DNA of 64,000 bases. Origin: Escherichia phage Paul. The notes below the pieces were generated by a model. That model was not told the origin of the DNA, made no database searches, and was given only the letters and a program-made list of their open reading frames with translations. Location of the stretch: sequence record NC_070992.1; one strand, written 5' to 3'. Numbering within the stretch: position 1 is the first letter of the stretch; the number at the start of each line of letters is the position of its first letter. The position numbers and the translations under genes were made by a program. Positions 8,589 to 61,605 of the stretch are shown here, one piece after another.

Positions 8589-9641
8589 ATGTCTTTATTT
8601 GGAAAATCAGCTTCTAGCAAAACCACAGTGGCTCCTTCCTCTCAGGTTGATGCCCTGCTGAAGCAGATTGTTGCTAATGCTCAGAATATGCAGAACAACG
8701 ATCCGGGATTCATCTCCCAACAGCTGGCTGGGTTTAATGGCAACCAACAGGGTGCTCTGAATAACTTAGCAGCTTCTACAACTCAGAAGCAATTGGCTGA
8801 TATGTACACACCTCGTACACAGCAAGGACTGGACCAACTAAACGCTCTTGCTCAACAGTATCAGAATATTGTCAATGGTGGTGGTCTAACTGCTGATGGT
8901 GTTAATAACTTTAGTAAAGGGTTGAATAACTCAGCTCTTGCTCAAGCTACTAGTAAGGCAGCTTCCAATGTATCTCTCGGAAATGGCTCCGACTCTGGCT
9001 CTCTTCGTAGAGCTGCTGCTCAAGGTGCTGCCCTGAACGGTGCTAATACAAACTTAGCTCGTACTATCAGTGGTAAGAACATGGGAATCAGTGCTCTTCA
9101 ACAAGACCAAAACTTCCAGAGAGGCTTACTTGGTGCTCAGTCAGGGTTGGCTGGACAGAATCTCAATCTTGGTGCTCAGGGTGTTCAAGCAACTCAACAA
9201 GCCATCCAGAATCAACTCATGGCTGGTAATCTACAACAGCAGCAAGCTCAGGCTCAAGCTGATATTAATTGGCAGAACGCTATTGGCTCTCAGCAGTATG
9301 GATGGAATCAGCTTAACAACCAACTTAATGTATTAAACAGTGTAAGTCCAATGGCTGGATATACAATTAAGAATGCCGCTCCGGGTGTTAACACAGGACA
9401 GCAGATTCTCGGTGCTGGTATTACTGGATTAGGTATTGCAGGTCGTATGGGCGCTTTCTCTCCTAACCAACAGACTCAGAATGCTTGGAGTTCCTATAAT
9501 AATTCAGGTGGGCAATCTGGCATGGCTGGTCCTATGATTGGAGGTTCTAATCTTTCTCAACAGAGAGGTCAGTCTAACTGGTTATCCACAGCAGGTAGTA
9601 ATATCTTAGGTGGGGTCTTAGGGGCATTCGGAGCAAACTAA
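8589..9641 (+). CDS. putative internal virion/ejection protein (Gln/Asn/Gly-rich)
   Basis: 350 aa, low-complexity Q/N/G/A-rich; N-terminus MSLFGKSASSKTT is paralogous to the next gene. Confidence 0.4.
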   Translation: MSLFGKSASSKTTVAPSSQVDALLKQIVANAQNMQNNDPGFISQQLAGFNGNQQGALNNLAASTTQKQLADMYTPRTQQGLDQLNALAQQYQNIVNGGGLTADGVNNFSKGLNNSALAQATSKAASNVSLGNGSDSGSLRRAAAQGAALNGANTNLARTISGKNMGISALQQDQNFQRGLLGAQSGLAGQNLNLGAQGVQATQQAIQNQLMAGNLQQQQAQAQADINWQNAIGSQQYGWNQLNNQLNVLNSVSPMAGYTIKNAAPGVNTGQQILGAGITGLGIAGRMGAFSPNQQTQNAWSSYNNSGGQSGMAGPMIGGSNLSQQRGQSNWLSTAGSNILGGVLGAFGAN

Positions 9642-10635: not shown

Positions 10636-12291
10636 ATGCAACAGACAACTTACGCTCAGGTCAGAAGTCGTGACCCGAGAAATACTTTCTATGGTGTTAA
10701 TCCGGGAGCGGCTTCGGCCTCTCCTTATATGGCTAGACCTACTCAGACAGCAGATGTTTCTATGTACCAGCGTCCTGCTGTACCTTCATCTCTCGCAGGT
10801 CTTGTCTCTCAAGCAGAAGAAGATCAGAATGCTATGGTGAATCCGGGATTTCAGCAACGTCTTATGGAACAACAGAATCAAGGAACCCCAACAAGTCTTC
10901 AGGGTATTGATATTGGAGAACCAGCCACTGTAGCAGCTAATCCTAATTTATCCACTGATCAAGGTTTACAAGATGCGGGACTTATGCCTAGTGATCCTCT
11001 TCCGGTAACACCCCCTACTAAACCACTAGAAGCTGGTCCTATGGAGTTTACTCCTTCTCAAGTAGAACAAGCACAAGGTGTTGTTAACACTCTTGCTCAA
11101 GGTCAGGACACTGGTGATGGTATGGCTGCTGCTACTCGTGCTAAAGATCAGGAACGTGTTAACAACGATATCTTGCAAGTTGCGAAAGCTAAAGACCCTT
11201 CAGAAGCTTGGAACAAACTACAGAAAGAACCATTCTATCAGAACTCTAGTTTCTATACAGGTTTGATGGGTGTAGGTCTTTCCATTATGTCAGGTAAGTC
11301 TCCTATTGAAGCTTTCCAGATTGGTCAGGGAATGGCTAACCAAGATGAGACTAAGAAGCAACTAGAAGCTAATCGTGATGCCCTGATTGAACAAGGTTTC
11401 TCTCAAGACTCAATTGCAGCTGCTATTGCTAACGGAGACCCATCTCTACTGAAGATGAGAGCTGTAGACCCTGCTCAGAAAGAAGCGTTGTATGCTGCTC
11501 GTGAAGAACGACAAAATGCTGAATGGGATAGACGTCAACAGATTCAAGAGCAAACTATGCGTGAGCGTGCTGATGAAACTCGTCGTGCCGCTGAAGAAAG
11601 GGCTAACATGAACTTCGAACGTCAGAAAGAGTTGATTGGCTATCGTGATAAAGTTAAGGCTGAACGTGCTGAACAAGCTGCTCAGAGTTTTAACTTTAAT
11701 CCGAAAGAAGTTCGTCTTGCTCAGAACACAGCTGAAGGTACGGTTGCTAAGCAGTGGGCAGAGAAAGGTGGTCTGTTTAACCAGTCTAACAAAGACTTGG
11801 ATTTGGCTGATAAGGCTGTTAAGGATAAAGATTATCAGACAGCTCGTTCTGCTTACATGCAGGCTATTATGAACTCCGCAAGGGCTGAAATCGGTGCTAC
11901 TCGTTCTCTTACCGAAGAAGACTTGGGGCACTTTGCAGAAGACCCGTCAATCTTCGTTCGTGTTGGCAACAAGTTTGCACTGAAATCTGGATGGCGTCCT
12001 ACTGATTCTGCTCTTGCTTATGCTCGTAAGCAGGCTAACGTTGGTCACACCTCTGCAATGAAAGGTGTTGCTGATGCTAAGAGAGCTACGATTGAAGCTT
12101 ATATTGGTTCTGGTATGGATAAGAAGAGGGCTACTGCATTGGTCAACCGTGCAATCCCTTCTGGCGGTTTCTATGACCCTCTAGGTGTTTTCTCTGAACA
12201 AGCGGAAGAAGCAGTTGGTGGTGCAGCAACCAATCCTAAGCTTAATGGTGCTTTATCAGCTGTCGAAGACACTAGCTGGTTCACTCAATAA
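10636..12291 (+). CDS. putative internal virion protein
   Basis: 551-aa ORF with SD, in the structural block; charged coiled-coil-like middle region. Confidence 0.35.
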   Translation: MQQTTYAQVRSRDPRNTFYGVNPGAASASPYMARPTQTADVSMYQRPAVPSSLAGLVSQAEEDQNAMVNPGFQQRLMEQQNQGTPTSLQGIDIGEPATVAANPNLSTDQGLQDAGLMPSDPLPVTPPTKPLEAGPMEFTPSQVEQAQGVVNTLAQGQDTGDGMAAATRAKDQERVNNDILQVAKAKDPSEAWNKLQKEPFYQNSSFYTGLMGVGLSIMSGKSPIEAFQIGQGMANQDETKKQLEANRDALIEQGFSQDSIAAAIANGDPSLLKMRAVDPAQKEALYAAREERQNAEWDRRQQIQEQTMRERADETRRAAEERANMNFERQKELIGYRDKVKAERAEQAAQSFNFNPKEVRLAQNTAEGTVAKQWAEKGGLFNQSNKDLDLADKAVKDKDYQTARSAYMQAIMNSARAEIGATRSLTEEDLGHFAEDPSIFVRVGNKFALKSGWRPTDSALAYARKQANVGHTSAMKGVADAKRATIEAYIGSGMDKKRATALVNRAIPSGGFYDPLGVFSEQAEEAVGGAATNPKLNGALSAVEDTSWFTQ

Positions 12292-12311
12292 GACCTAAGT
12301 CCTGCCTTCTA

Positions 12312-12320
12312 TAATGTATA
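12312..12320 (+). promoter_or_regulatory. TAATGTATA motif (candidate phage-sigma promoter element)
   Basis: Exact 9-mer about 40 nt upstream of the ATG at 12359; one of four copies in the window. Confidence 0.45.
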
Positions 12321-12358: not shown

Positions 12359-15300
12359 ATGGCTAACATTAAACCGTGGGAAGAAGCTTCCAAAGCTCCT
12401 GCGTATCTGAATGCCTCTCCGGAGCAACAAGCTCAAATGAGAGAACAATATAAGGCAGCAGGTGGCTCTATTCCTGAGGAACAACCAGTAGCACAACCAC
12501 AACAAGAAGAACGTGGTGCTATAGGTGAGTTTGCTCAAGGTGTGTCAAATGCTCTTCAATCCGGTGGTGCAAATATTGCAGCTAGTGCTGCTAAAGGTAT
12601 TGGTGGTTTAGTTGAGATTGGTGAGAATCTAGCTGGAGCACAAACTAGTTACGGTAAGCGTATCCAAGAAAACTCTCAGAACCTTCTGAAAGAACGTATG
12701 GATAAGATTGAGGATGGGATTGGTAAAACTGTTGGTCAGTATGCTGGTGTTGCTGGTGATATTGGTATGACTGTTGCTAACCCATTAGCTGCTGCTGCTA
12801 TCATCGCAGGTCGTGAGACAGGTCGTGCATATGCAGACCAAACCCCTGAAGAGGGAGAAGATAAGTCTATTCTAGATGCAGCCTTAGTTGGTGGTGCTAA
12901 CTATGCGGCTCAGAGAATCCTTCCGGGTGCTGTTGGTACAGCTGAGTCCACACTTGGACGTATCGGTCAGAACGTTGCTAGTAACGCAGTGGCTGGTGCT
13001 AAAGGCGGTGCTCTTGTAGGTGCTGCTGAAGCTCAGAACAAGCATGGAGATGATACAACCTTTGCTAATGTATTAGAGGGTGCTATCGAAGAAGGTGCTA
13101 TGGGTGCTGCATTCGGTGGTGCAGTTGGTGGGGTTCACGGTTTGATTAGCCGTCCGGATTCTGCTGTCTTCAAGAATACTCCAGAGTATGCGAAGACTGA
13201 TATTGCTGCTGATGACGAACTGATTCGTAGTGCTAAGAATGTTGATGAATTGAAAGAGGCTTACTCTAAAGCTGAAACTGCTAACGCTGCTTCTGCTCTG
13301 AACCTTCTCGATGAGAATGGATTCCGTATTACAGATGCTGTTGCTGTAGATTCTCCTCCTGCTCAGCGTATTCTTAATACTGACCAAGCTCGTGCTGAGA
13401 AAGCTGCTTCCGTTCAGAAAGAGCATTCCAACATTCCGGGCCTTAATCCTTTAGCTTCTCCTGCTAAGACTCGTGGTAAAGCTTTCGCTGATAATGAGCA
13501 CAACCAGAAGCAGGCTGTTGCTATGAAGGATGCAATGGCTGATTACACCAAAGACAACACGAAAGCTCTTACAGATGTTCTAGATAACCTAGATCGTGAA
13601 TTAACATCCCTACGAGCTTCTGGTAATTTTACTGGTAGTCCGATTGATATTAAGAATCGTACACAAGCTGACCGTGACTTCATTGATGCTTACAAGACTT
13701 TCTACAATGAAGCAAATCGATTCAAAGCTCGTGAAGGTGAAGACTTTAATAACTTTGTAGAGAAAGCTGCTGAACTACAAAAGATGGCTGATAATGTTTC
13801 TCCAGAGATGAAGAAAGCTATCGGTGGGTTGAAGAAACTGAAAGGTATGCCTGAAGGTTTTAATCCTATCCAAGATGCTTACACTCTGAACAATACAGCT
13901 AAGTTCATGAGCAATCAAGATCGTGGTTGGACTTCCCTGACTGATGATGGCTTCCGTGAGGCTTCTTCACCTAGTCTGGTAATGAACACTCTCGGTGCTG
14001 CTAAGTATGCTCTGAATCGCTTCTCTTCTCAGCGTGCTCGCTCTCAACGTGTTAAGCAACAAGAATCTAACAGTGAAGCTATCCGCTCTCTTGCTCGTGG
14101 TGATTTGGAAGTTGCTCGTGCTAAATCTACTGCTGATGAAGCTCGTGCTAAGATGGAAGAAGAACCAGTTGTTGATGACATTAAATTTAAGACGCAAAAT
14201 GACGTGGAAACCGAACCGGTTCGGGAGCCTTCTTCTAGTACTGTGACGGAAGAAAATCTTCCTTCTTCTGCTCCTCAAGAAACCCCTCTTACAGCTCGTG
14301 ATTTAGTTGCGCAAAGACGTGCTATCCGTCAGGCTGAACAGCGTCGCGCTGAAGAAGAGGCATTGGCTGCTCAAGAAGCTCCGGTCGAACAAGCTCCACA
14401 GGCTGAACCTCTCCCTGCTCGTAATCCTTTAGAGGAGCGTCGTGCAATGGAACAGCAACGTGCTCAAGAAGAGGCCGCACAGGCTCCAGAACCCACTGTA
14501 GAGGAACCAACAGTTAAAGCTGAGCCATTACCTGCCCGTGCTCCTAAAGCTCCTAAGGAAGCTGTACAGGACGTTAAACCGGCAAGTGGTGTAGAACGTT
14601 TAGCTGCTATGTCTAGTGCTGCTCGTCAGGCTACCAAAGATCGTGCAGAACGCTTTGCTCGTTCTCTGTACTCTAAGGCTGCTAAAGCTAAAGCTACTGC
14701 TGAAAACTTCTTGGCTTATAAAGGTGATCCTAAGGAATTGATGCGTCGTATTCGTCAGGAAGATAATGCTATCAACACTGAACGTCATGAAGAAATGGCT
14801 CGTAACCAGCTGGCTTCTCAGCAAGGTATTGCTACTGCTAAGAACAACACTGTACGAACTAATTTTGCTGAATGGGTTAAGGAACGTGGTCTGCCAGAAG
14901 ACATTGCTACTAAGGCATTACGTGCTGAAGAGAAAGGTTTAGGTGGGAACGTTACTAACTTGGATAGTCTGAAACGTCGTGCTGAAAGGTTGTATCAGAA
15001 GCAGCGTGAGGATGAATTTGATAGATTGTATCAACAAGCTCTAGAAGAGAACAAAGCTTTCGATAAGAAAGATGCTCCTAAACTGGTTGACCAGAAGAAA
15101 GAGCTTCAGTCTGAGATTGATACTTTGATTGATTCTGAACCTTTACGTCCTGCTCAGAAAGATGCTATGCGTAAGCTGATGAATGACTTTGTAGATGGGA
15201 AGTTTAAATCTTCAGAGAAGGCTGGTAGGGAAGAGGCTTTGGAAGTTGGTCAGATGAAGGATATTTGGGATGGGTTTATTAACACCTATAACAGAGAAGT

Positions 15301-16780
15301 GAATGCCTTCAACAAAGCTAACAAGAACTCTCAGTATGAAGCTGCTGCTAAGCATTTACAGGCTCGTGAAGAACGTCTTGCTACTCTGAGAAACAAAGCT
15401 CAGGCTCGTTCAGATGCTAAGGCTGCTGTTGAGAACGAACGTAAAACTTTAGAGGCTATTGCAGCTCAGAAGAGTGAGATTGAGAAGATGATGGAAGGTT
15501 TACCTAAACCTGTTCGTGAGGCTCAGGAATCTCGTACATTGAAACAGTTGGCTGCTCACCACGATAAGAACTCTCCAGTTCCTCCAGAGAAGTTCCGTAG
15601 TTACATTGAACGTATCCATAACGCCGAGTCAGACTACCTTGATCGTCAGCGTCGTTTAACTGATGCAGAGGAAGATGCTCGTCAGGCCAAGTGGAACAAG
15701 ATGTATGAGCAAGCGGAAGAAATGAACCGTAAGTTTGATGTGGACAAGAGAGTTAAGCGCAGTGAAGAGCTTAAAGCGGCCCAAGAGCGTGAGAATGACC
15801 TTATGGCAGTACAACGTCAACGTGATGACATTCATCGCCGCCTGATGCGTACTATGGAAGATAAGGGCATATCTAGAGAGGATGCTGAAGCATTTGCTGG
15901 TTCCTATATGGATAACCGTTATGCACTTCTTGAGAAGCCTATGACTCCTACTGAACATCAGAATGCTCGTTCTCGTATCGAAGCTGATGTTGAGAAGTTT
16001 GCTAAGAAGTACGAATCAATGACTCCTATCGAGAAAGAGATTGTTAAGGTTACTGGAGATACTGAAGGTAAGCTTGATAACTTGGATGCGGATACTAGGA
16101 AGGCTATTGAGGAGGCTCAGAAGGTTGACTCTGATATTAAGAAACTGCAAGAGGAAGAGTTGGAGATGGAGAAGATTCGTTCTGCTCTGCCTGATGATGA
16201 AAGATCTCAAGCAAATTCTGATATCTTGGAAAGCATTAAACAACAGGAAGAGGTCTTTGCTGATAAAGTAGAGAAAGCTTTCTTGAGTGGGAAGAGCTTG
16301 GATGAGTTGGCTAGTGTGGCTGAAGTTTTAGACAGGGTTCATGGTGCAGATAAGGCTGGTAACAACCGTCGCTTTGTACGTGCATTGCAGACTGCTGCTG
16401 AAAACAAGAAGAAGTATGGTGATAATCCAGTAGCTTGGTTTAGTGCTGATGATTATTCTGCTATTGCTAAACTTGGTGCTTCTTCCGCAGGTGGTAACAA
16501 ATCTAGAGCACTGGAGAAGATCTTTGGTTCTACAGCTGAACAGGCTAAGAGTAAGTTGCTTGGCAGGGATGATGTAGCGAAGATGAGACGTGTGATTGAA
16601 GAGAACCCTGATGTTAAGATTCCTTCTTACAAGACAACGAATCGTACTGAGTACTTGCAGTTCTTGGAGAAGTTTAATGACGAAGGGAAGCCGAAGATTA
16701 AACGTGGCTCATTGTCAGAGAAGCTTGAACGCAGTAAGCGTCAATCGAGACTCCGTGTAAGAGTTCGACCTAAGGAGTGA
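12359..16780 (+). CDS. large internal virion/ejection protein (about 1473 aa)
   Basis: Track ORF 12314..16780; probable start MANIKPWEE at 12359 after SD AAAGGAG; long Ala/Glu/Lys/Arg-rich helical protein. Confidence 0.45.
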   Translation: MANIKPWEEASKAPAYLNASPEQQAQMREQYKAAGGSIPEEQPVAQPQQEERGAIGEFAQGVSNALQSGGANIAASAAKGIGGLVEIGENLAGAQTSYGKRIQENSQNLLKERMDKIEDGIGKTVGQYAGVAGDIGMTVANPLAAAAIIAGRETGRAYADQTPEEGEDKSILDAALVGGANYAAQRILPGAVGTAESTLGRIGQNVASNAVAGAKGGALVGAAEAQNKHGDDTTFANVLEGAIEEGAMGAAFGGAVGGVHGLISRPDSAVFKNTPEYAKTDIAADDELIRSAKNVDELKEAYSKAETANAASALNLLDENGFRITDAVAVDSPPAQRILNTDQARAEKAASVQKEHSNIPGLNPLASPAKTRGKAFADNEHNQKQAVAMKDAMADYTKDNTKALTDVLDNLDRELTSLRASGNFTGSPIDIKNRTQADRDFIDAYKTFYNEANRFKAREGEDFNNFVEKAAELQKMADNVSPEMKKAIGGLKKLKGMPEGFNPIQDAYTLNNTAKFMSNQDRGWTSLTDDGFREASSPSLVMNTLGAAKYALNRFSSQRARSQRVKQQESNSEAIRSLARGDLEVARAKSTADEARAKMEEEPVVDDIKFKTQNDVETEPVREPSSSTVTEENLPSSAPQETPLTARDLVAQRRAIRQAEQRRAEEEALAAQEAPVEQAPQAEPLPARNPLEERRAMEQQRAQEEAAQAPEPTVEEPTVKAEPLPARAPKAPKEAVQDVKPASGVERLAAMSSAARQATKDRAERFARSLYSKAAKAKATAENFLAYKGDPKELMRRIRQEDNAINTERHEEMARNQLASQQGIATAKNNTVRTNFAEWVKERGLPEDIATKALRAEEKGLGGNVTNLDSLKRRAERLYQKQREDEFDRLYQQALEENKAFDKKDAPKLVDQKKELQSEIDTLIDSEPLRPAQKDAMRKLMNDFVDGKFKSSEKAGREEALEVGQMKDIWDGFINTYNREVNAFNKANKNSQYEAAAKHLQAREERLATLRNKAQARSDAKAAVENERKTLEAIAAQKSEIEKMMEGLPKPVREAQESRTLKQLAAHHDKNSPVPPEKFRSYIERIHNAESDYLDRQRRLTDAEEDARQAKWNKMYEQAEEMNRKFDVDKRVKRSEELKAAQERENDLMAVQRQRDDIHRRLMRTMEDKGISREDAEAFAGSYMDNRYALLEKPMTPTEHQNARSRIEADVEKFAKKYESMTPIEKEIVKVTGDTEGKLDNLDADTRKAIEEAQKVDSDIKKLQEEELEMEKIRSALPDDERSQANSDILESIKQQEEVFADKVEKAFLSGKSLDELASVAEVLDRVHGADKAGNNRRFVRALQTAAENKKKYGDNPVAWFSADDYSAIAKLGASSAGGNKSRALEKIFGSTAEQAKSKLLGRDDVAKMRRVIEENPDVKIPSYKTTNRTEYLQFLEKFNDEGKPKIKRGSLSEKLERSKRQSRLRVRVRPKE

Positions 16781-19298: not shown

Positions 19299-20784
<1,486 letters not shown>

Positions 20785-21337: not shown

Positions 21338-22084
21338 TTAGAATGGGCTATCGTTGTCGTCTTCATAAGTAGAAGCAGGCTCTTTATCAATCGTAGGGAT
21401 TGAAGGAGTAGCTTCTTTCTGTTCTGTTTCAGAAGCACGAGTAATTTCACGACCAGCCAGAGGCATGTTCTTAGCGTCATTAGCTTGAGTAAGCAGGTTG
21501 CGCTGGAACGGGAACATTAGTTGATAGGATGCTACGTTCTCATCAGTTTCAGCATACGGTTCGAAGAATACCAGAGGACTACGAGCTTCACCAACTGCTG
21601 CACGATATTTGGTTGGGATTGGAGAAATGGTTTTGATGGAGTTTTTAACTTCACCAGCTTTGTTAGTGTAAGAGTTAACCAGAATGTTAACAGGCTGGCC
21701 TAACAGAACATCCTTGAACCAAGACAGATCACCTTTCAGTGCTTGAATGCTTGGGTCAATCATCTTGCAAAGATCAAGAATACCAGAGTTCTTAGCTCGT
21801 GGGTTTACATCATAGCTCTTGAACTGGCAAGCCGGACGTGGTTCTAATGCCTTACCATCGGAATCTTTACCAGTAGCATCAACACCAATCAGCTCGAAAG
21901 CCAAATCCATACGGAAAGCCGGATTCTTAGGAGTTACTGCTTTGGTCTTCGGGTCAATCCAAGGGTCACGATTGTGAACACCCAAACCTACTACACGAAC
22001 GATACGTGCTTCGTATTCACCATCAGGGATTACATCGTAGTTGGATTTACGGGAAGCAGTTGCGATAGTTGGAATCATAGACAT
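21338..22084 (-). CDS. putative single-stranded DNA-binding protein
   Basis: 248 aa with acidic C-terminal tip ...YEDDNDSPF reminiscent of the SSB tail (DDDIPF); neighbours replication genes. Confidence 0.45.
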   Translation of the reverse strand: MSMIPTIATASRKSNYDVIPDGEYEARIVRVVGLGVHNRDPWIDPKTKAVTPKNPAFRMDLAFELIGVDATGKDSDGKALEPRPACQFKSYDVNPRAKNSGILDLCKMIDPSIQALKGDLSWFKDVLLGQPVNILVNSYTNKAGEVKNSIKTISPIPTKYRAAVGEARSPLVFFEPYAETDENVASYQLMFPFQRNLLTQANDAKNMPLAGREITRASETEQKEATPSIPTIDKEPASTYEDDNDSPF

Positions 22085-22143
22085 ATTGTAATTTCCTTAT
22101 TTAATTTGAAAGATTGTTGCTCTCTTTGAGCGGTTATGTATAG

Positions 22144-22152
22144 TATACATTA
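22144..22152 (-). promoter_or_regulatory. TAATGTATA motif on the minus strand (candidate phage-sigma promoter)
   Basis: Forward TATACATTA; sits about 60 nt upstream of the SSB-like gene start at 22084. Confidence 0.45.
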
Positions 22153-22215
22153 CGCTTATACCGATAAGAGTACTATATAATATAAGTATCTTTGGTAGTA
22201 GATATAACACACCAG

Positions 22216-22224
22216 TAATGTATA
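22216..22224 (+). promoter_or_regulatory. TAATGTATA motif on the plus strand, divergent from the 22144 copy
   Basis: Exact 9-mer in the 334-bp intergenic region; no obvious plus-strand ORF downstream. Confidence 0.35.
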
Positions 22225-22418
22225 TATTGTATAGCTGATAAAGTTATTGCAGGCTTGTATATTGGGCAATTCACAGAACCCCTTGCAAGTACCGAAGGGC
22301 AGGAGCCACCTGCGAGATAAAAATAGAGAATTAAGGAATCCTTGATTTAGGTTGAGGACTCCTAGGACTTTGATTCTCTATTAAAATCAAAAGAAAACTT
22401 AACTTAAAACAATAACTT

Positions 22419-23057
22419 CTACCATTCTAAAAGACCTTTAAAACTAGTTTGTTCTACTGTTCTCTGAAAAGGTAAGTTAGTTCTAGCTTGAGATTCTAAT
22501 TGAATCTTCTTTCGGATTTCCTCCAATTGCTCTCTACTTTTATCCCCCACTGGAAACAATATAGTTTCTAATACGCTTTTTCTCTCAGCGAACTCCTTAC
22601 GAATTTCTTGCAGAGACACAGCTTTGTAATCAATTTGTTCCATTGAAGTACAAAAGTATCTCCAATCTTTTATAGTAGAATTATGAGTATGAGCATAGAT
22701 ATTATACCTTCCTCTCATTTCATCAGAGTGAATAGGAATATGAGTTACCCAAAATTCTTTGTACTTATAATCACCACTGATGTGTCTAAAGACTTTCATC
22801 ATATCAGGGAGAAGTTCTAATCTGTCATGGTTTCCTAAGACAAGATGTTTCTCTCCTTTTACTTCAGCGATGATATCAAGAGCATACTTTTCAAACACCC
22901 AATCACCGGTAAAGAAGATTTTATCACGCTTAGTTACATGATCAAATGCAGCTAGGATTGCTTTGTCGTGTTCTTCGATGGTTTTAAATTGCTTACGAAA
23001 ACTACAGATGTTGCGATGACCTAAGTGACCATCTCCTGCAAAATAAACTTCAGCCAT
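22419..23057 (-). CDS. calcineurin-like metallophosphoesterase (Ser/Thr phosphatase family)
   Basis: GDGHLGH, GDWV and GNHD motifs in canonical order. Confidence 0.7.
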   Translation of the reverse strand: MAEVYFAGDGHLGHRNICSFRKQFKTIEEHDKAILAAFDHVTKRDKIFFTGDWVFEKYALDIIAEVKGEKHLVLGNHDRLELLPDMMKVFRHISGDYKYKEFWVTHIPIHSDEMRGRYNIYAHTHNSTIKDWRYFCTSMEQIDYKAVSLQEIRKEFAERKSVLETILFPVGDKSREQLEEIRKKIQLESQARTNLPFQRTVEQTSFKGLLEW

Positions 23058-28027: not shown

Positions 28028-28345
28028 TTACGATGAGCTTAAAGCTCCTTTGCGTGCTCCAGCTGCTTTTCCAGCTCGATCACCACTTTTGCCGCCGTTT
28101 GAACGGTTTGAGCTGACTGATTCAACACGTAAGTTGCTTGACGCATTAGAACCTCCAGACTTGACAGCTCGTTTGTGTCCAACGTCTTTACCTCTGACAG
28201 CAGCTTTTCCATCGCGCTTTTCAACGATGCGACGTGCACGGTGGCGCTGAGCATCTCCGCTCTTGCTCCCAATTCCCGTTTCACCGCGCTTGATCGCAGT
28301 TCTTCTTTCTTGTGCATAATCTCTCTTTCCTACATGGTCTGCCAT
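28028..28345 (-). CDS. highly basic low-complexity protein
   Basis: 105 aa rich in Lys/Arg/Gly/Ser; SD AAGGAG 7 nt before the ATG; TAATGTATA motif about 40 nt upstream. Confidence 0.45.
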   Translation of the reverse strand: MADHVGKRDYAQERRTAIKRGETGIGSKSGDAQRHRARRIVEKRDGKAAVRGKDVGHKRAVKSGGSNASSNLRVESVSSNRSNGGKSGDRAGKAAGARKGALSSS

Positions 28346-28381: not shown

Positions 28382-28390
28382 TATACATTA
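28382..28390 (-). promoter_or_regulatory. TAATGTATA motif on the minus strand (candidate phage-sigma promoter)
   Basis: Forward TATACATTA; directly upstream of the basic-protein gene. Confidence 0.45.
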
Positions 28391-28399
28391 TGGATGCTA

Positions 28400-28567
28400 T
28401 TAAAACTCTGCTAAGTATTTAATATCAGAGGCATATACCTCATCAAAGGAAATAACTTCTCCGTTGTAAATAAGTTCTATCTTCAGTATACCAGAGCATT
28501 TGGTGTCTTTAGAGTCAACTCTGATAGAGAGCTTATTAACTATCTGAGCTTTAATCTCTTCTATCAT
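28400..28567 (-). CDS. hypothetical protein
   Basis: Track ORF 28400..28648; internal start chosen to avoid overlap with the upstream ORF. Confidence 0.25.
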   Translation of the reverse strand: MIEEIKAQIVNKLSIRVDSKDTKCSGILKIELIYNGEVISFDEVYASDIKYLAEF

Positions 28568-53400: not shown

Positions 53401-53430
53401 TGAGTGATCTCCTTATTTGAGAGTACTTTA

Positions 53431-53506
53431 AGAGGACGGGGAGATTCGAACTCACCAACCTAGAATTTAGAAGATTCTTGCTCTCATCCAATTGAGCTAC
53501 GCCCTC
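53431..53506 (-). tRNA. tRNA-Arg (anticodon UCU), no encoded CCA
   Basis: Folded by hand: acceptor GAGGGCG/CGTCCTC (one G-U), D-stem GCTC/GAGC, anticodon stem AGAAT/ATTCT, loop CTTCTAA, T-loop TTCGAAT; one extra nucleotide in the variable region; 3' end followed by TTAAAG. Confidence 0.7.
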
Positions 53507-53526
53507 TTAAAGTACTCTCTGTTTAA

Positions 53527-59657: not shown

Positions 59658-60480
59658 GATATTCACCTTTCAATTGTAAGGGCGCTATTGCCCCGCTCTC
59701 TATGAGCTTGCTTAAGTCACTATTAACTTAACTCTAACCACTCACTATTAAGTAGTTATAGGTAAGTGGGGCGGTCTTATCAGGAGTTAACCTTGCCGCC
59801 CCCTTATCCGTGATGTTTCATCTGGTATCTTTAATTAGTCGCTATAAACGAAGCCGACCTGATAGCGATGATCAATCATCACAATAAGGCTATGCGTCCG
59901 ATTCTATTTAATTACATTGCTGTAACCGTCGGCAATATCGTCTACTTTGTTTTCGCTCCCGCTTATCCTTTTATATCAGCTCTCTATCGCTAGTCATCGC
60001 CCACTACGGGATACTATTGCGAAAGAGTCACTAACCGCCTAGTATTCCGGCGTTTTATATCTTTCAGCAGGTTTACTACATAACCCGACTATGTACTTTC
60101 ATCTTATGATGAATCTCAAGCCGTTCACATCGTAAACGTTCGCATTAAACCTTATTGTTAAATAGCAATTTGCCACTTTTCAACCACTCCCCGCCGCTCT
60201 CAATTGAGCGTTATTTCTTCGGGCTTGCCTACCCTGATTAACTTCTTTCACTGTAGCGCCTTGTTAGCGATGACCGCCGCTACCCTTAACCGTGGGCGAT
60301 TAGCTTAAGTCTTTGCGTGCACTCAATGAATCCGTTTATCAGTGGTGACGTTTCCAGTAAGGGATTGTAAGGCTGTTTTCTCTGATAGTTTAGAGAGTCT
60401 TACACCGTTTTATCTGGTATGTTATCCGATGGTTATTATCATCTAACATATTCAACCGATATAGGAGAATGTTTAAATTA

Positions 60481-60491
60481 TTAAAGAGCGG
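60481..60491 (+). repeat. TTAAAGAGCGG motif, copy 1 of 4
   Basis: Same 10-11-mer recurs at 60715, 61027 and 61137 in an ORF-poor region. Confidence 0.5.
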
Positions 60492-60571
60492 TAAATCTAT
60501 CAGTGTGCTTTCTCACACTATGCAACCGTTAGCCGTTGTTACGCTTTCCACTTAAGCGATGATTTGCTTAG

Positions 60572-60609
60572 TGAGTGCTCATTATGAATCAGGCTGTTTT
60601 CGCTGTCAA
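60572..60609 (+). repeat. direct repeat copy A (TGAGTGCTCATTATGAATCAGGCTGTTTTCG...TGTCAA)
   Basis: 31-nt identical core plus flank shared with 61060..61097. Confidence 0.6.
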
Positions 60610-60714
60610 CCGCTTTTTAATCTTTTTTCGTCGTTCCCGCTATTGGGAGGATATATCAATCAGCTTTATTTGATTGAGGATTAAGCGGTGAGGCTTAACT
60701 TATGATTCATATTG

Positions 60715-60725
60715 TTAAAGAGCGG
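60715..60725 (+). repeat. TTAAAGAGCGG motif, copy 2
   Basis: Exact match. Confidence 0.5.
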
Positions 60726-61026
60726 TGTAGCATTTACAGCTTAACACATCGTGTTAGCTTGTCAATCTCTTTTTATCATCTTCTTTTATTCTTTTCCCTT
60801 ATCTCGCGTGAATCTATGCGAAAGGGCAAGATGATAAGTCTGATTTGTCTTTTAGGAATCTAGTGCGCTTTCAAGCATTAATCTTTTGAAAGTATCGAAC
60901 AAATAAGGCTTATTGATATTGCTTATTGCCCGCCTGCGTCACGTATGAATCAGGAATCAATTCTACCGATTAACTGAGCGCCTTATAGTAATGACGTTGC
61001 CGCCACCTGTAAGACAAATCATGTTT

Positions 61027-61037
61027 TTAAAGAGCGG
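61027..61037 (+). repeat. TTAAAGAGCGG motif, copy 3
   Basis: Exact match. Confidence 0.5.
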
Positions 61038-61059
61038 GATGTTTTAAGTCATCGCTGAC

Positions 61060-61097
61060 TGAGTGCTCATTATGAATCAGGCTGTTTTCGGTGTCAA
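61060..61097 (+). repeat. direct repeat copy B
   Basis: Near-identical to 60572..60609 (single mismatch C/G in the flank). Confidence 0.6.
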
Positions 61098-61136
61098 TAC
61101 TCTTTTTGAGAATATTTTCACTTTCTAGCCTGATTT

Positions 61137-61146
61137 TTAAAGAGCG
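61137..61146 (+). repeat. TTAAAGAGCG motif, copy 4
   Basis: 10-nt match. Confidence 0.45.
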
Positions 61147-61511
61147 TAGCACTTTCATTGTGCGTCTTACTGTCGGTATTCCTACCGCTCCCCGTTGAAG
61201 CCTTTTACCGTGATGCTAATCACCTATCGAGGAGTTTTACTTCTTGTTGTTGCTTACTGCTTACTACGGGATTCATATTAATATACAGGAAAATCCTGTC
61301 AATACCCTTTTTTCAAATTATTTTTCATCTCACTGTTTTATAAAGGAATTTATTTTATTGTCGGTAGGACACCGGAAGAAATCAGGAGGTAAAGGAATGG
61401 GTGCGCGTGATACATCATAGAAAACGGCTTGTAAAGCCATAATAAGCGTCCTAAAACACATCACAACGAGCTAAAAGGGAGTAAGGCATACAATCACCTC
61501 ATAAAAGAGAA

Positions 61512-61530
61512 AAGCCTCACTAGGAGGCTT
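61512..61530 (-). terminator. putative intrinsic terminator (minus strand)
   Basis: AAGCCTC-CTAGT-GAGGCTT hairpin followed by TTCTCTTTTAT. Confidence 0.45.
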
Positions 61531-61605
61531 ACAGGAAGGATTAGAGAATCAGATAAATTATGACCATAGGCATGACTACGGCACAATACAGGAGAAAGAT
61601 TAAGC

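Follow-up and report, generated by a model that had tools for sequence, protein, structure and literature searches.

Work on phage-encoded sigma factors has phiEco32 as its reference: promoters of this phage are mapped, and a cryo-EM structure of the open complex dates from 2025. The promoters used by the gp36 holoenzyme share tAATGTAtA as their one conserved element, and transcription starts 6-8 bp past it; six such promoters are mapped in phiEco32, ahead of genes 6, 13, 26, 40, 58 and 68 (PMC8948821, Table S3; PMC4331800). P68, the last of these, served as the template both in transcription in vitro and in the cryo-EM work on the open complex. There the C-terminal domain of gp36 contacts -37G and -34A, and transcription is abolished when these bases are mutated; gp79 inhibits the sigma70 holoenzyme and activates the gp36 holoenzyme (PMC12276001).

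We analyzed a stretch of 64,000 nucleotides from Escherichia phage Paul (NC_070992.1), hereafter the window, whose gene order is that of phiEco32 and whose region around position 22216 is 93-94% identical to SU10-type relatives of phiEco32 (Kuravirus, Gordonclarkvirinae). In the early region, 59667-61605 (about 1.9 kb) is the longest interval of the window in which the expected strand has no ORF of 45 aa or more. The phage encodes both gp36 and gp79:

19678..20325, minus strand: phage sigma factor, gp36 ortholog, 99.5% amino acid identity to phi32_36
39583..39828, minus strand: gp79 ortholog, 100% identity over 82 aa

The original prediction had described the first of these ORFs as a sigma factor with region 2 and region 4 signatures. 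The sigma assignment stood, with a match to PHROG 1740 'RNA polymerase sigma factor' at E=6e-46. For the signatures, Pfam Sigma70_r2 scored 19.1 bits, under the cut-off, and the Pfam and PHROG sequence searches gave no region-4 family match. Region 4 of gp36 is known solely through its cryo-EM fold (PMC12276001). The gene lies on the minus strand, which corrects the earlier reading.

The four copies of the exact 9-mer TAATGTATA on which the original prediction was built were all located, at 12312-12320 (+), 22144-22152 (-), 22216-22224 (+) and 28382-28390 (-). Dinucleotide-preserving shuffles gave a mean of 0.67 copies, and none of 100 reached four. One-mismatch copies occur at chance level (18 found vs 20.8 expected), so the signal is carried by the exact element only; one of them, AAATGTATA at 33409-33417 (-), is the known promoter P68. 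The original prediction had identified the motif as the promoter consensus of the phiEco32-like sigma factor, and it matches the published tAATGTAtA element (PMC8948821, PMC4331800) at 12312, 22144, 22216 and 28382, with AAATGTATA at 33409. The phiEco32 orthologs of the TAATGTATA sites all lie between annotated genes; the non-coding share of the window is about 9%, and four intergenic copies out of four would arise by chance at ~1e-4, both values being taken from a crude ORF map that places the 12312 copy inside an ORF. The gene-directed copies stand 37-60 nt ahead of the start codons at 12359 (1473 aa), 22084 (248 aa) and 28345 (105 aa). We assigned the window copies to known promoters by gene orthology and flanking sequence, the 1473-aa gene (12359-16780) corresponding to phi32_26; P6 and P13 are outside the window:

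12312..12320, plus strand: late promoter P26; its -10-like element is the exact 9-mer, 39 nt ahead of the 1473-aa gene, with flanks matching phiEco32 26014
22144..22152, minus strand: middle promoter P40; its -10-like element is the exact 9-mer, 60 nt ahead of gene 40, ortholog of phiEco32 36632
28382..28390, minus strand: middle promoter P58; its -10-like element is the exact 9-mer, 37 nt ahead of the 105-aa gene (28028-28345), ortholog of phiEco32 42937
33409..33441, minus strand: middle promoter P68; AAATGTATA at 33409-33417 and TTGGTAGTAGATAT at 33428-33441, ortholog of phiEco32 46862

P40 is the ortholog of the SU10 promoter 'between CDS37 and CDS38', and its predicted start is near 22137. 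The TAATGTATA motif and three of its four copies (P26, P40 and P58) are already known. In phiEco32 itself the nucleotide comparison gave five exact copies, four of which are the mapped promoters P13, P26, P40 and P58, and the fifth, at 36704 (+), is the ortholog of the window copy at 22216. We call this rightward site Pr:

22192..22205, plus strand: Pr -35-region element TTGGTAGTAGATAT, -39 to -26; 14-mer identical, and in register, to that of P68 (33428-33441, minus strand)
22216..22224, plus strand: Pr -10-like element, exact TAATGTATA; phiEco32 ortholog at 36704

Pr has in common with P6, P13, P26, P40, P58 and P68 the -10-like element, the phage group and the gp36 and gp79 proteins, and with P68 the identical 14-nt element from -39 to -26, including -37G and -34A. 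Only two exact copies of TTGGTAGTAGATAT exist in the window, those of Pr and P68, and in Pr the bases corresponding to the gp36 contacts (G 22194 and A 22197) are found at the right distance. The -10 element of Pr has the full consensus whereas P68 has A at the first position, such that the predicted promoter is closer to consensus than the one used for the structure. Pr differs from the six in that it alone has no downstream gene and in that its activity is predicted. A gene follows shortly after P26, P40, P58 and P68, but no ORF is found within 194 nt of Pr, which stands back to back with P40 and points the opposite way to the entire cluster of leftward middle and early genes. A gene shortly downstream is, however, something that the six known promoters have in common, not a requirement of the mechanism. 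From its elements and their conservation, we consider it very probable that Pr functions as a promoter and, as far as we could determine, it would be an unreported seventh gp36 promoter, of the P68 (middle) sub-type. It is absent from the published lists that we covered (PMC8948821 and its Table S3, PMC4331800, the SU10 paper and its Table S2, and the SU7 paper). Guzina and Djordjevic (2015) scanned only the strand facing the downstream gene, and Pr was therefore beyond the reach of their method (PMC4331800). No experimental transcript from Pr was found in the papers that we covered. If real, Pr would complete the phiEco32 transcription map, and if active it would be an in vitro template with which the contribution of the -35-region element could be probed.

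The sequences upstream of the gp36 sites were compared at 12282-12311, 22153-22182 (-), 22186-22215, 28391-28420 (-) and 33418-33447 (-) of the window, and at 1647-1676 and 9071-9100 of phiEco32. All seven sites have -38T, -37R, -36R and -34A, and the 'single-element' gp36 promoter therefore seems to carry a weak -35-like TRRNA. Beyond this common core, late promoters P13 and P26 have TAAGACCTA in common (-38 to -30), P68 and the 22216 site have TTGGTAGTAGATAT, P6 has TTGGGAG and P58 has TTAGCAG, and gp36 promoters appear, on this comparison, to have class-specific upstream elements. The -10 element of P40 lies within an inverted repeat (minus strand TAATGTATA-C-TATACAT, 22134-22152), present in the SU7 group with a 3-nt spacer, and the 22216 site instead has a direct repeat, TGTATA-TAT-TGTATA, at 22216-22233; the one-mismatch copies at 22134 and 22225 are due to these two repeats, which may have a regulatory role in the region transcribed first.

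The bipartite footprint of Pr is conserved. Among 12 phages of three genera, positions -39 to -27 and -16 to -5 are invariant and the spacer of 10 nt between them is variable, and both elements are retained in 26 of 27 related sequences, in which the nucleotide identity of gene 40 goes down to 72%. The core TGGTAGT is kept in all 27 and the AATG core contacted by gp36 in 26, the one exception being a metagenomic variant in which -11G is changed to A. In the distant metagenomic relatives (gene 40 at 72-79% nucleotide identity), TGGTAGT is followed after 22-23 nt by TAATGAATA or GAATGTATT. ES17-type phages retain Pr and the conserved block described below as the 3' module despite about 180 nt inserted between Pr and P40. 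This insert (ES17 1084-1227; also in L017, L028, L030, L031, L033 and L034) holds a 47-aa minus-strand ORF whose start codon overlaps the -35-region element (CATGGTAGTA). It is hard to reconcile this pattern with Pr as a non-functional relic, for instance a duplicated fragment of P68 lying beside an unrelated conserved block. The 14-nt identity with P68 could indeed reflect a duplication, and one natural variant has lost -11G, but the promoter elements, their spacing and a hairpin at +1 are retained in 26 of 27 sequences while the surrounding DNA diverges or is replaced, and all the other exact copies in phiEco32 are mapped promoters; we regard such a relic as highly improbable.

The original prediction had placed the 22216 copy facing away from annotated genes into some 190 bp of ORF-free DNA, and the interval 22225-22418 (194 nt) does lack any ATG ORF, having only TTG or GTG frames of 21-37 aa. 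A small protein overlooked by annotation could be imagined in this spacer, where a few GenBank records place a hypothetical protein. Those ORFs, however, are minus-strand frames of 37 or 53 aa that extend across both promoters and vary in length and position between groups; the plus strand offers only TTG frames of 21-32 aa, and indels of 1, 2 and 3 nt among the relatives shift the frame. We give this explanation almost no credence. What the spacer appears to encode is a structured RNA, with the following parts:

22231..22385, plus strand: predicted non-coding RNA, about 152 nt here and 138-180 nt in relatives
22231..22247, plus strand: 5' hairpin AUAGCU-GAUAA-AGUUAU, beginning at the predicted +1
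22248..22290, plus strand: variable middle domain, at least four non-homologous forms among relatives
22291..22382, plus strand: near-invariant 92-nt 3' module, a hairpin and a long stem
22299-22313, plus strand: hairpin GCAGG-AGCCA-CCUGC of the 3' module; GCUGG/CCAGC in relative L168 (compensatory A-U to U-A)
22322-22336 with 22368-22382, plus strand: long stem of 15-16 bp, indels falling in predicted loops and bulges

Single-sequence folding gave -46.8 kcal/mol, with z=-3.2 for the plus strand vs -2.1 for the minus strand, and the consensus fold reached -39.1 kcal/mol on the plus strand vs -29.2 on the minus strand, seven of its G.U pairs being A.C mismatches on the opposite strand. The 5' hairpin opens exactly at the predicted +1 in every lineage, although it is built from seven different helix sequences: AUAGCU/AGUUAU, AUAGCU/AGCUAU, AUAGUU/AACUAU, AGAGUUA/UAACUCU, AUAGA/UCUAU, ACAUC/GAUGU and AUCUCU/AGAGGU. 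In the closer set of sequences 98.3% of its cells are paired, against 33-63% in slid-partner controls, and its covariation score is 0.41 vs 0.17 in shuffles (0 of 500 reach 0.41), a score obtained from a small sample of phylogenetically related sequences. A G.U pair of this hairpin is feasible on the plus strand only. Further compensatory pairs are found in the GCAGG/CCUGC hairpin (one) and in the middle helix (two), the latter because the L162 and L168 forms of the middle domain fold into the same helix by two compensatory swaps. The locus therefore combines compensatory changes with strand asymmetry, as expected of a structured RNA. Most of the 3' module, with its long stem, is invariant, so covariation there cannot probe structure; the module is 91-98% identical in sequences where the coding sequence of gene 40 is 72-83% identical. 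The end of this conservation and the stem together place the predicted 3' end.

The suspicion that the 22216 copy may drive a small RNA gains from the P68 -35-region element, from conservation in three genera and in metagenomic relatives and from the covarying structure on the plus strand. Taking these lines together, we think it likely that Pr is a seventh gp36 promoter transcribing a structured non-coding RNA of about 150 nt. The four forms of the middle domain are mixed among otherwise close phages, a distribution suggestive of recombination, or of modules being exchanged, within the RNA gene. The apical portion of the 3' stem has at 22351-22371 two direct repeats, AGGACU...AGGACU, both of which become AGGGACU in phiEco32-type sequences, a concerted change unexplained by the predicted fold. 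A long-range helix (UUGCA/UGCGA) seen in single-sequence folds was discarded, as the L168 swap breaks it and retains the local hairpin.

The long stem invites a different explanation, in which the block would be a leftward terminator, processing site or insulator and Pr would give only antisense RNA or transcriptional interference. An A5 tract and a U-run flank the stem. On the plus strand it is followed by only 2-4 U (UAUUAAAA here; UAUU(U)AAAA), and a discrete 3' end of the RNA is therefore uncertain; on the minus strand the long stem, A+U-rich when inspected by eye, is followed by UUUUUAUC, with U5. From this UUUUU on the opposite strand, the stem probably also terminates leftward transcription before the restart at P40, even though a scan of both strands for intrinsic terminators gave none and the plus-strand stem is not a canonical Rho-independent one. 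With so poor a U-run on the plus strand, rightward read-through could produce antisense RNA into the phosphoesterase gene (22419-23057), and P58 and P68 have no comparable spacer upstream, two points in favor of this explanation. Yet a terminator has no need of about 92 invariant nucleotides; 22291-22321, which lie beyond the U-run, are equally invariant, the covarying 5' hairpin and middle helices sit outside it, the plus strand has the better consensus fold, by 10 kcal/mol, and in ES17-type phages a leftward ORF downstream of the block implies that termination is incomplete. That the block serves only as a leftward terminator is, in our opinion, quite unlikely.

Most serious of the alternatives is that Pr is a replication promoter, or origin, whose transcript, or the R-loop that it forms in the A+T-rich DNA past the stem, would prime leading-strand synthesis, an explanation that partly overlaps the preferred one. 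Promoters of this kind are well known: phiOL and phiOR and the phi1.1A/B primary origin of T7, and the oriF and oriG middle promoters of T4, are gene-less phage promoters at origins. Pr resembles them in being phage-specific, in having no ORF behind it and A+T-rich DNA after it, and in its predicted activity at the time of replication, and it differs from them in that what it is predicted to transcribe is no simple unwinding element but an RNA structure that is conserved and covaries. We know of no mapped origin in any phiEco32-like phage. Two further features of the locus touch on this matter:

22383..22440, no strand assigned: A+T-rich stretch past the 3' stem; 77-78% A+T in 60-nt windows, top 0.2-0.4% of the window
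21338..22084, minus strand: gene 40, 248 aa, probable phage SSB; 100% identical to phi32_40

Gene 40 is annotated as hypothetical everywhere. It had been called SSB-like in the original prediction, a label for which sequence searches of Pfam, PHROG and PDB gave no support and to which the predicted fold lends some, weakly: the AlphaFold model made with an alignment is beta-rich with a pLDDT of 81.7 (36 for the single-sequence model), and Foldseek against the PDB returned SSB, PriB or RPA in 15 of the best 16 hits, with a best E-value of 3e-3 and low TM scores. The homologue alignment ends in the consensus DDDxPF, in a C-terminal tail with pLDDT below 50. On the strength of the model and this tail, gene 40 looks like a phage SSB.

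An origin would account for a promoter that has no gene, that carries the upstream element of P68 and is therefore predicted to fire while the replication genes are expressed, that has a 77-78% A+T stretch immediately past the stem and that adjoins the probable SSB gene. The GC skew, on the other hand, has no inflection at 22.2 kb, and GC and AT skew track gene orientation only, although in a phage such evidence is weak; the sequence of the short A+T-rich tail is not conserved, no iterons or DnaA-box-like repeats were seen at the locus, and the G.U pairs specific to the plus strand, together with the hairpin at +1, point to a folded free RNA and not to a hybrid. On balance we hold an origin to be rather unlikely.

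For the preferred reading, a structured RNA transcribed from Pr, the following course of events can be proposed. Host core polymerase with gp36 and gp79 would initiate divergently at P40 and Pr in the middle phase, leftward from P40 into the probable SSB gene 40 and on towards the sigma gene, and rightward from Pr at about 22231 to give an RNA of about 150 nt with a 5' hairpin, a middle domain and a 3' module. The 5' hairpin would protect the RNA and the long terminal stem would mark its 3' end; the same stem may keep the P40 unit apart from the upstream operon besides defining the end of the RNA, a dual role that the terminator scan does not favor. Our best guess is that the RNA acts in trans, being made as DNA replication begins, and that its 3' module binds a protein or RNA partner; the invariance of the module suggests that this partner is a specific one.

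Small RNAs of their own are encoded by several phages, among them lambda OOP, P22 sar, the T4 species 1 and 2 (band C/D) RNAs and the phi29 pRNA. The predicted RNA is like all of these in being short, structured and non-coding with its own promoter, and unlike them in that its promoter would depend on a phage sigma factor and in that it has no sequence or Rfam relationship to them. Unlike OOP and sar, it has neither overlap with a target gene nor detectable complementarity, and it would therefore not be a cis-antisense RNA: the longest exact complementary match to the rest of the phage genome is 11 nt, which is not above shuffled sequences. In 5,426 complete E. coli genomes, BLAST with the RNA as query gave no match at E<=1. 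Rfam 15 at gathering thresholds gave for the whole window no match but a tRNA, and with permissive E-values the best hit in 22000-22500 had an E-value of 0.85, far below any gathering score. The tRNA is:

53430-53507, minus strand: tRNA-Arg, anticodon TCT, also in phiEco32

A CsrA sponge acting through GGA motifs was considered and set aside, as four GGA counted by eye against about 2.6 expected is no enrichment.

ColE1 RNA II is a structured pre-primer. The predicted RNA would resemble it, if the origin reading is right, in being folded with a defined architecture and in having a dedicated promoter and no ORF; there is no sequence similarity between them, and an RNA I-like antisense partner or RNase H site is not evident, such that the comparison is purely an analogy. 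We only tentatively suggest that the locus represents a new class of structured RNA, dependent on a phage sigma factor and dedicated to the replication phase, either as an RNA II-like pre-primer or as a decoy or scaffold binding a host or phage protein through the 92-nt module. As a pre-primer it would define the origin of phiEco32-like phages, beside their probable SSB gene; were it the origin, or a decoy for a host factor, it would shed light on replication or on the takeover of the cell by these phages.

The conserved element is present in all 97 matching GenBank phage records, in five IMG/VR contigs, seven metagenome contigs and five intermediate relatives, and it was seen only where the TAATGTATA system occurs. 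Because it is more conserved than the adjoining gene, in at least three genera of therapeutic coliphages, the predicted RNA probably matters for infection. Relatives with a gene 40 at 63-70% amino acid identity have short spacers of 75-150 nt that lack the element, and no equivalent of the orphan promoter was found in phage 7-11; the spacers of 7-11 and Privateer are short, 75-100 nt (for Privateer this concerns spacer length only). When viral contigs were scanned for TGGTAGTA-N14-16-AATGTATA, the more than 120 matches were mostly unrelated and the pattern too unspecific to be of use, so that loci L036-L113 are disregarded, and the metagenome locus L032 was rejected as a chance 21-mer match. 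The distant relatives L025, L026, L027, L160, L165, L166 and L167 have GCATCTAGCAAAGCTAGCATATCAAAGCTAAGCTAAGCTATATGC upstream of their gene 40 homolog, replacing the TAATGTATA promoter, and this sequence may be a promoter or operator of their own sigma system.
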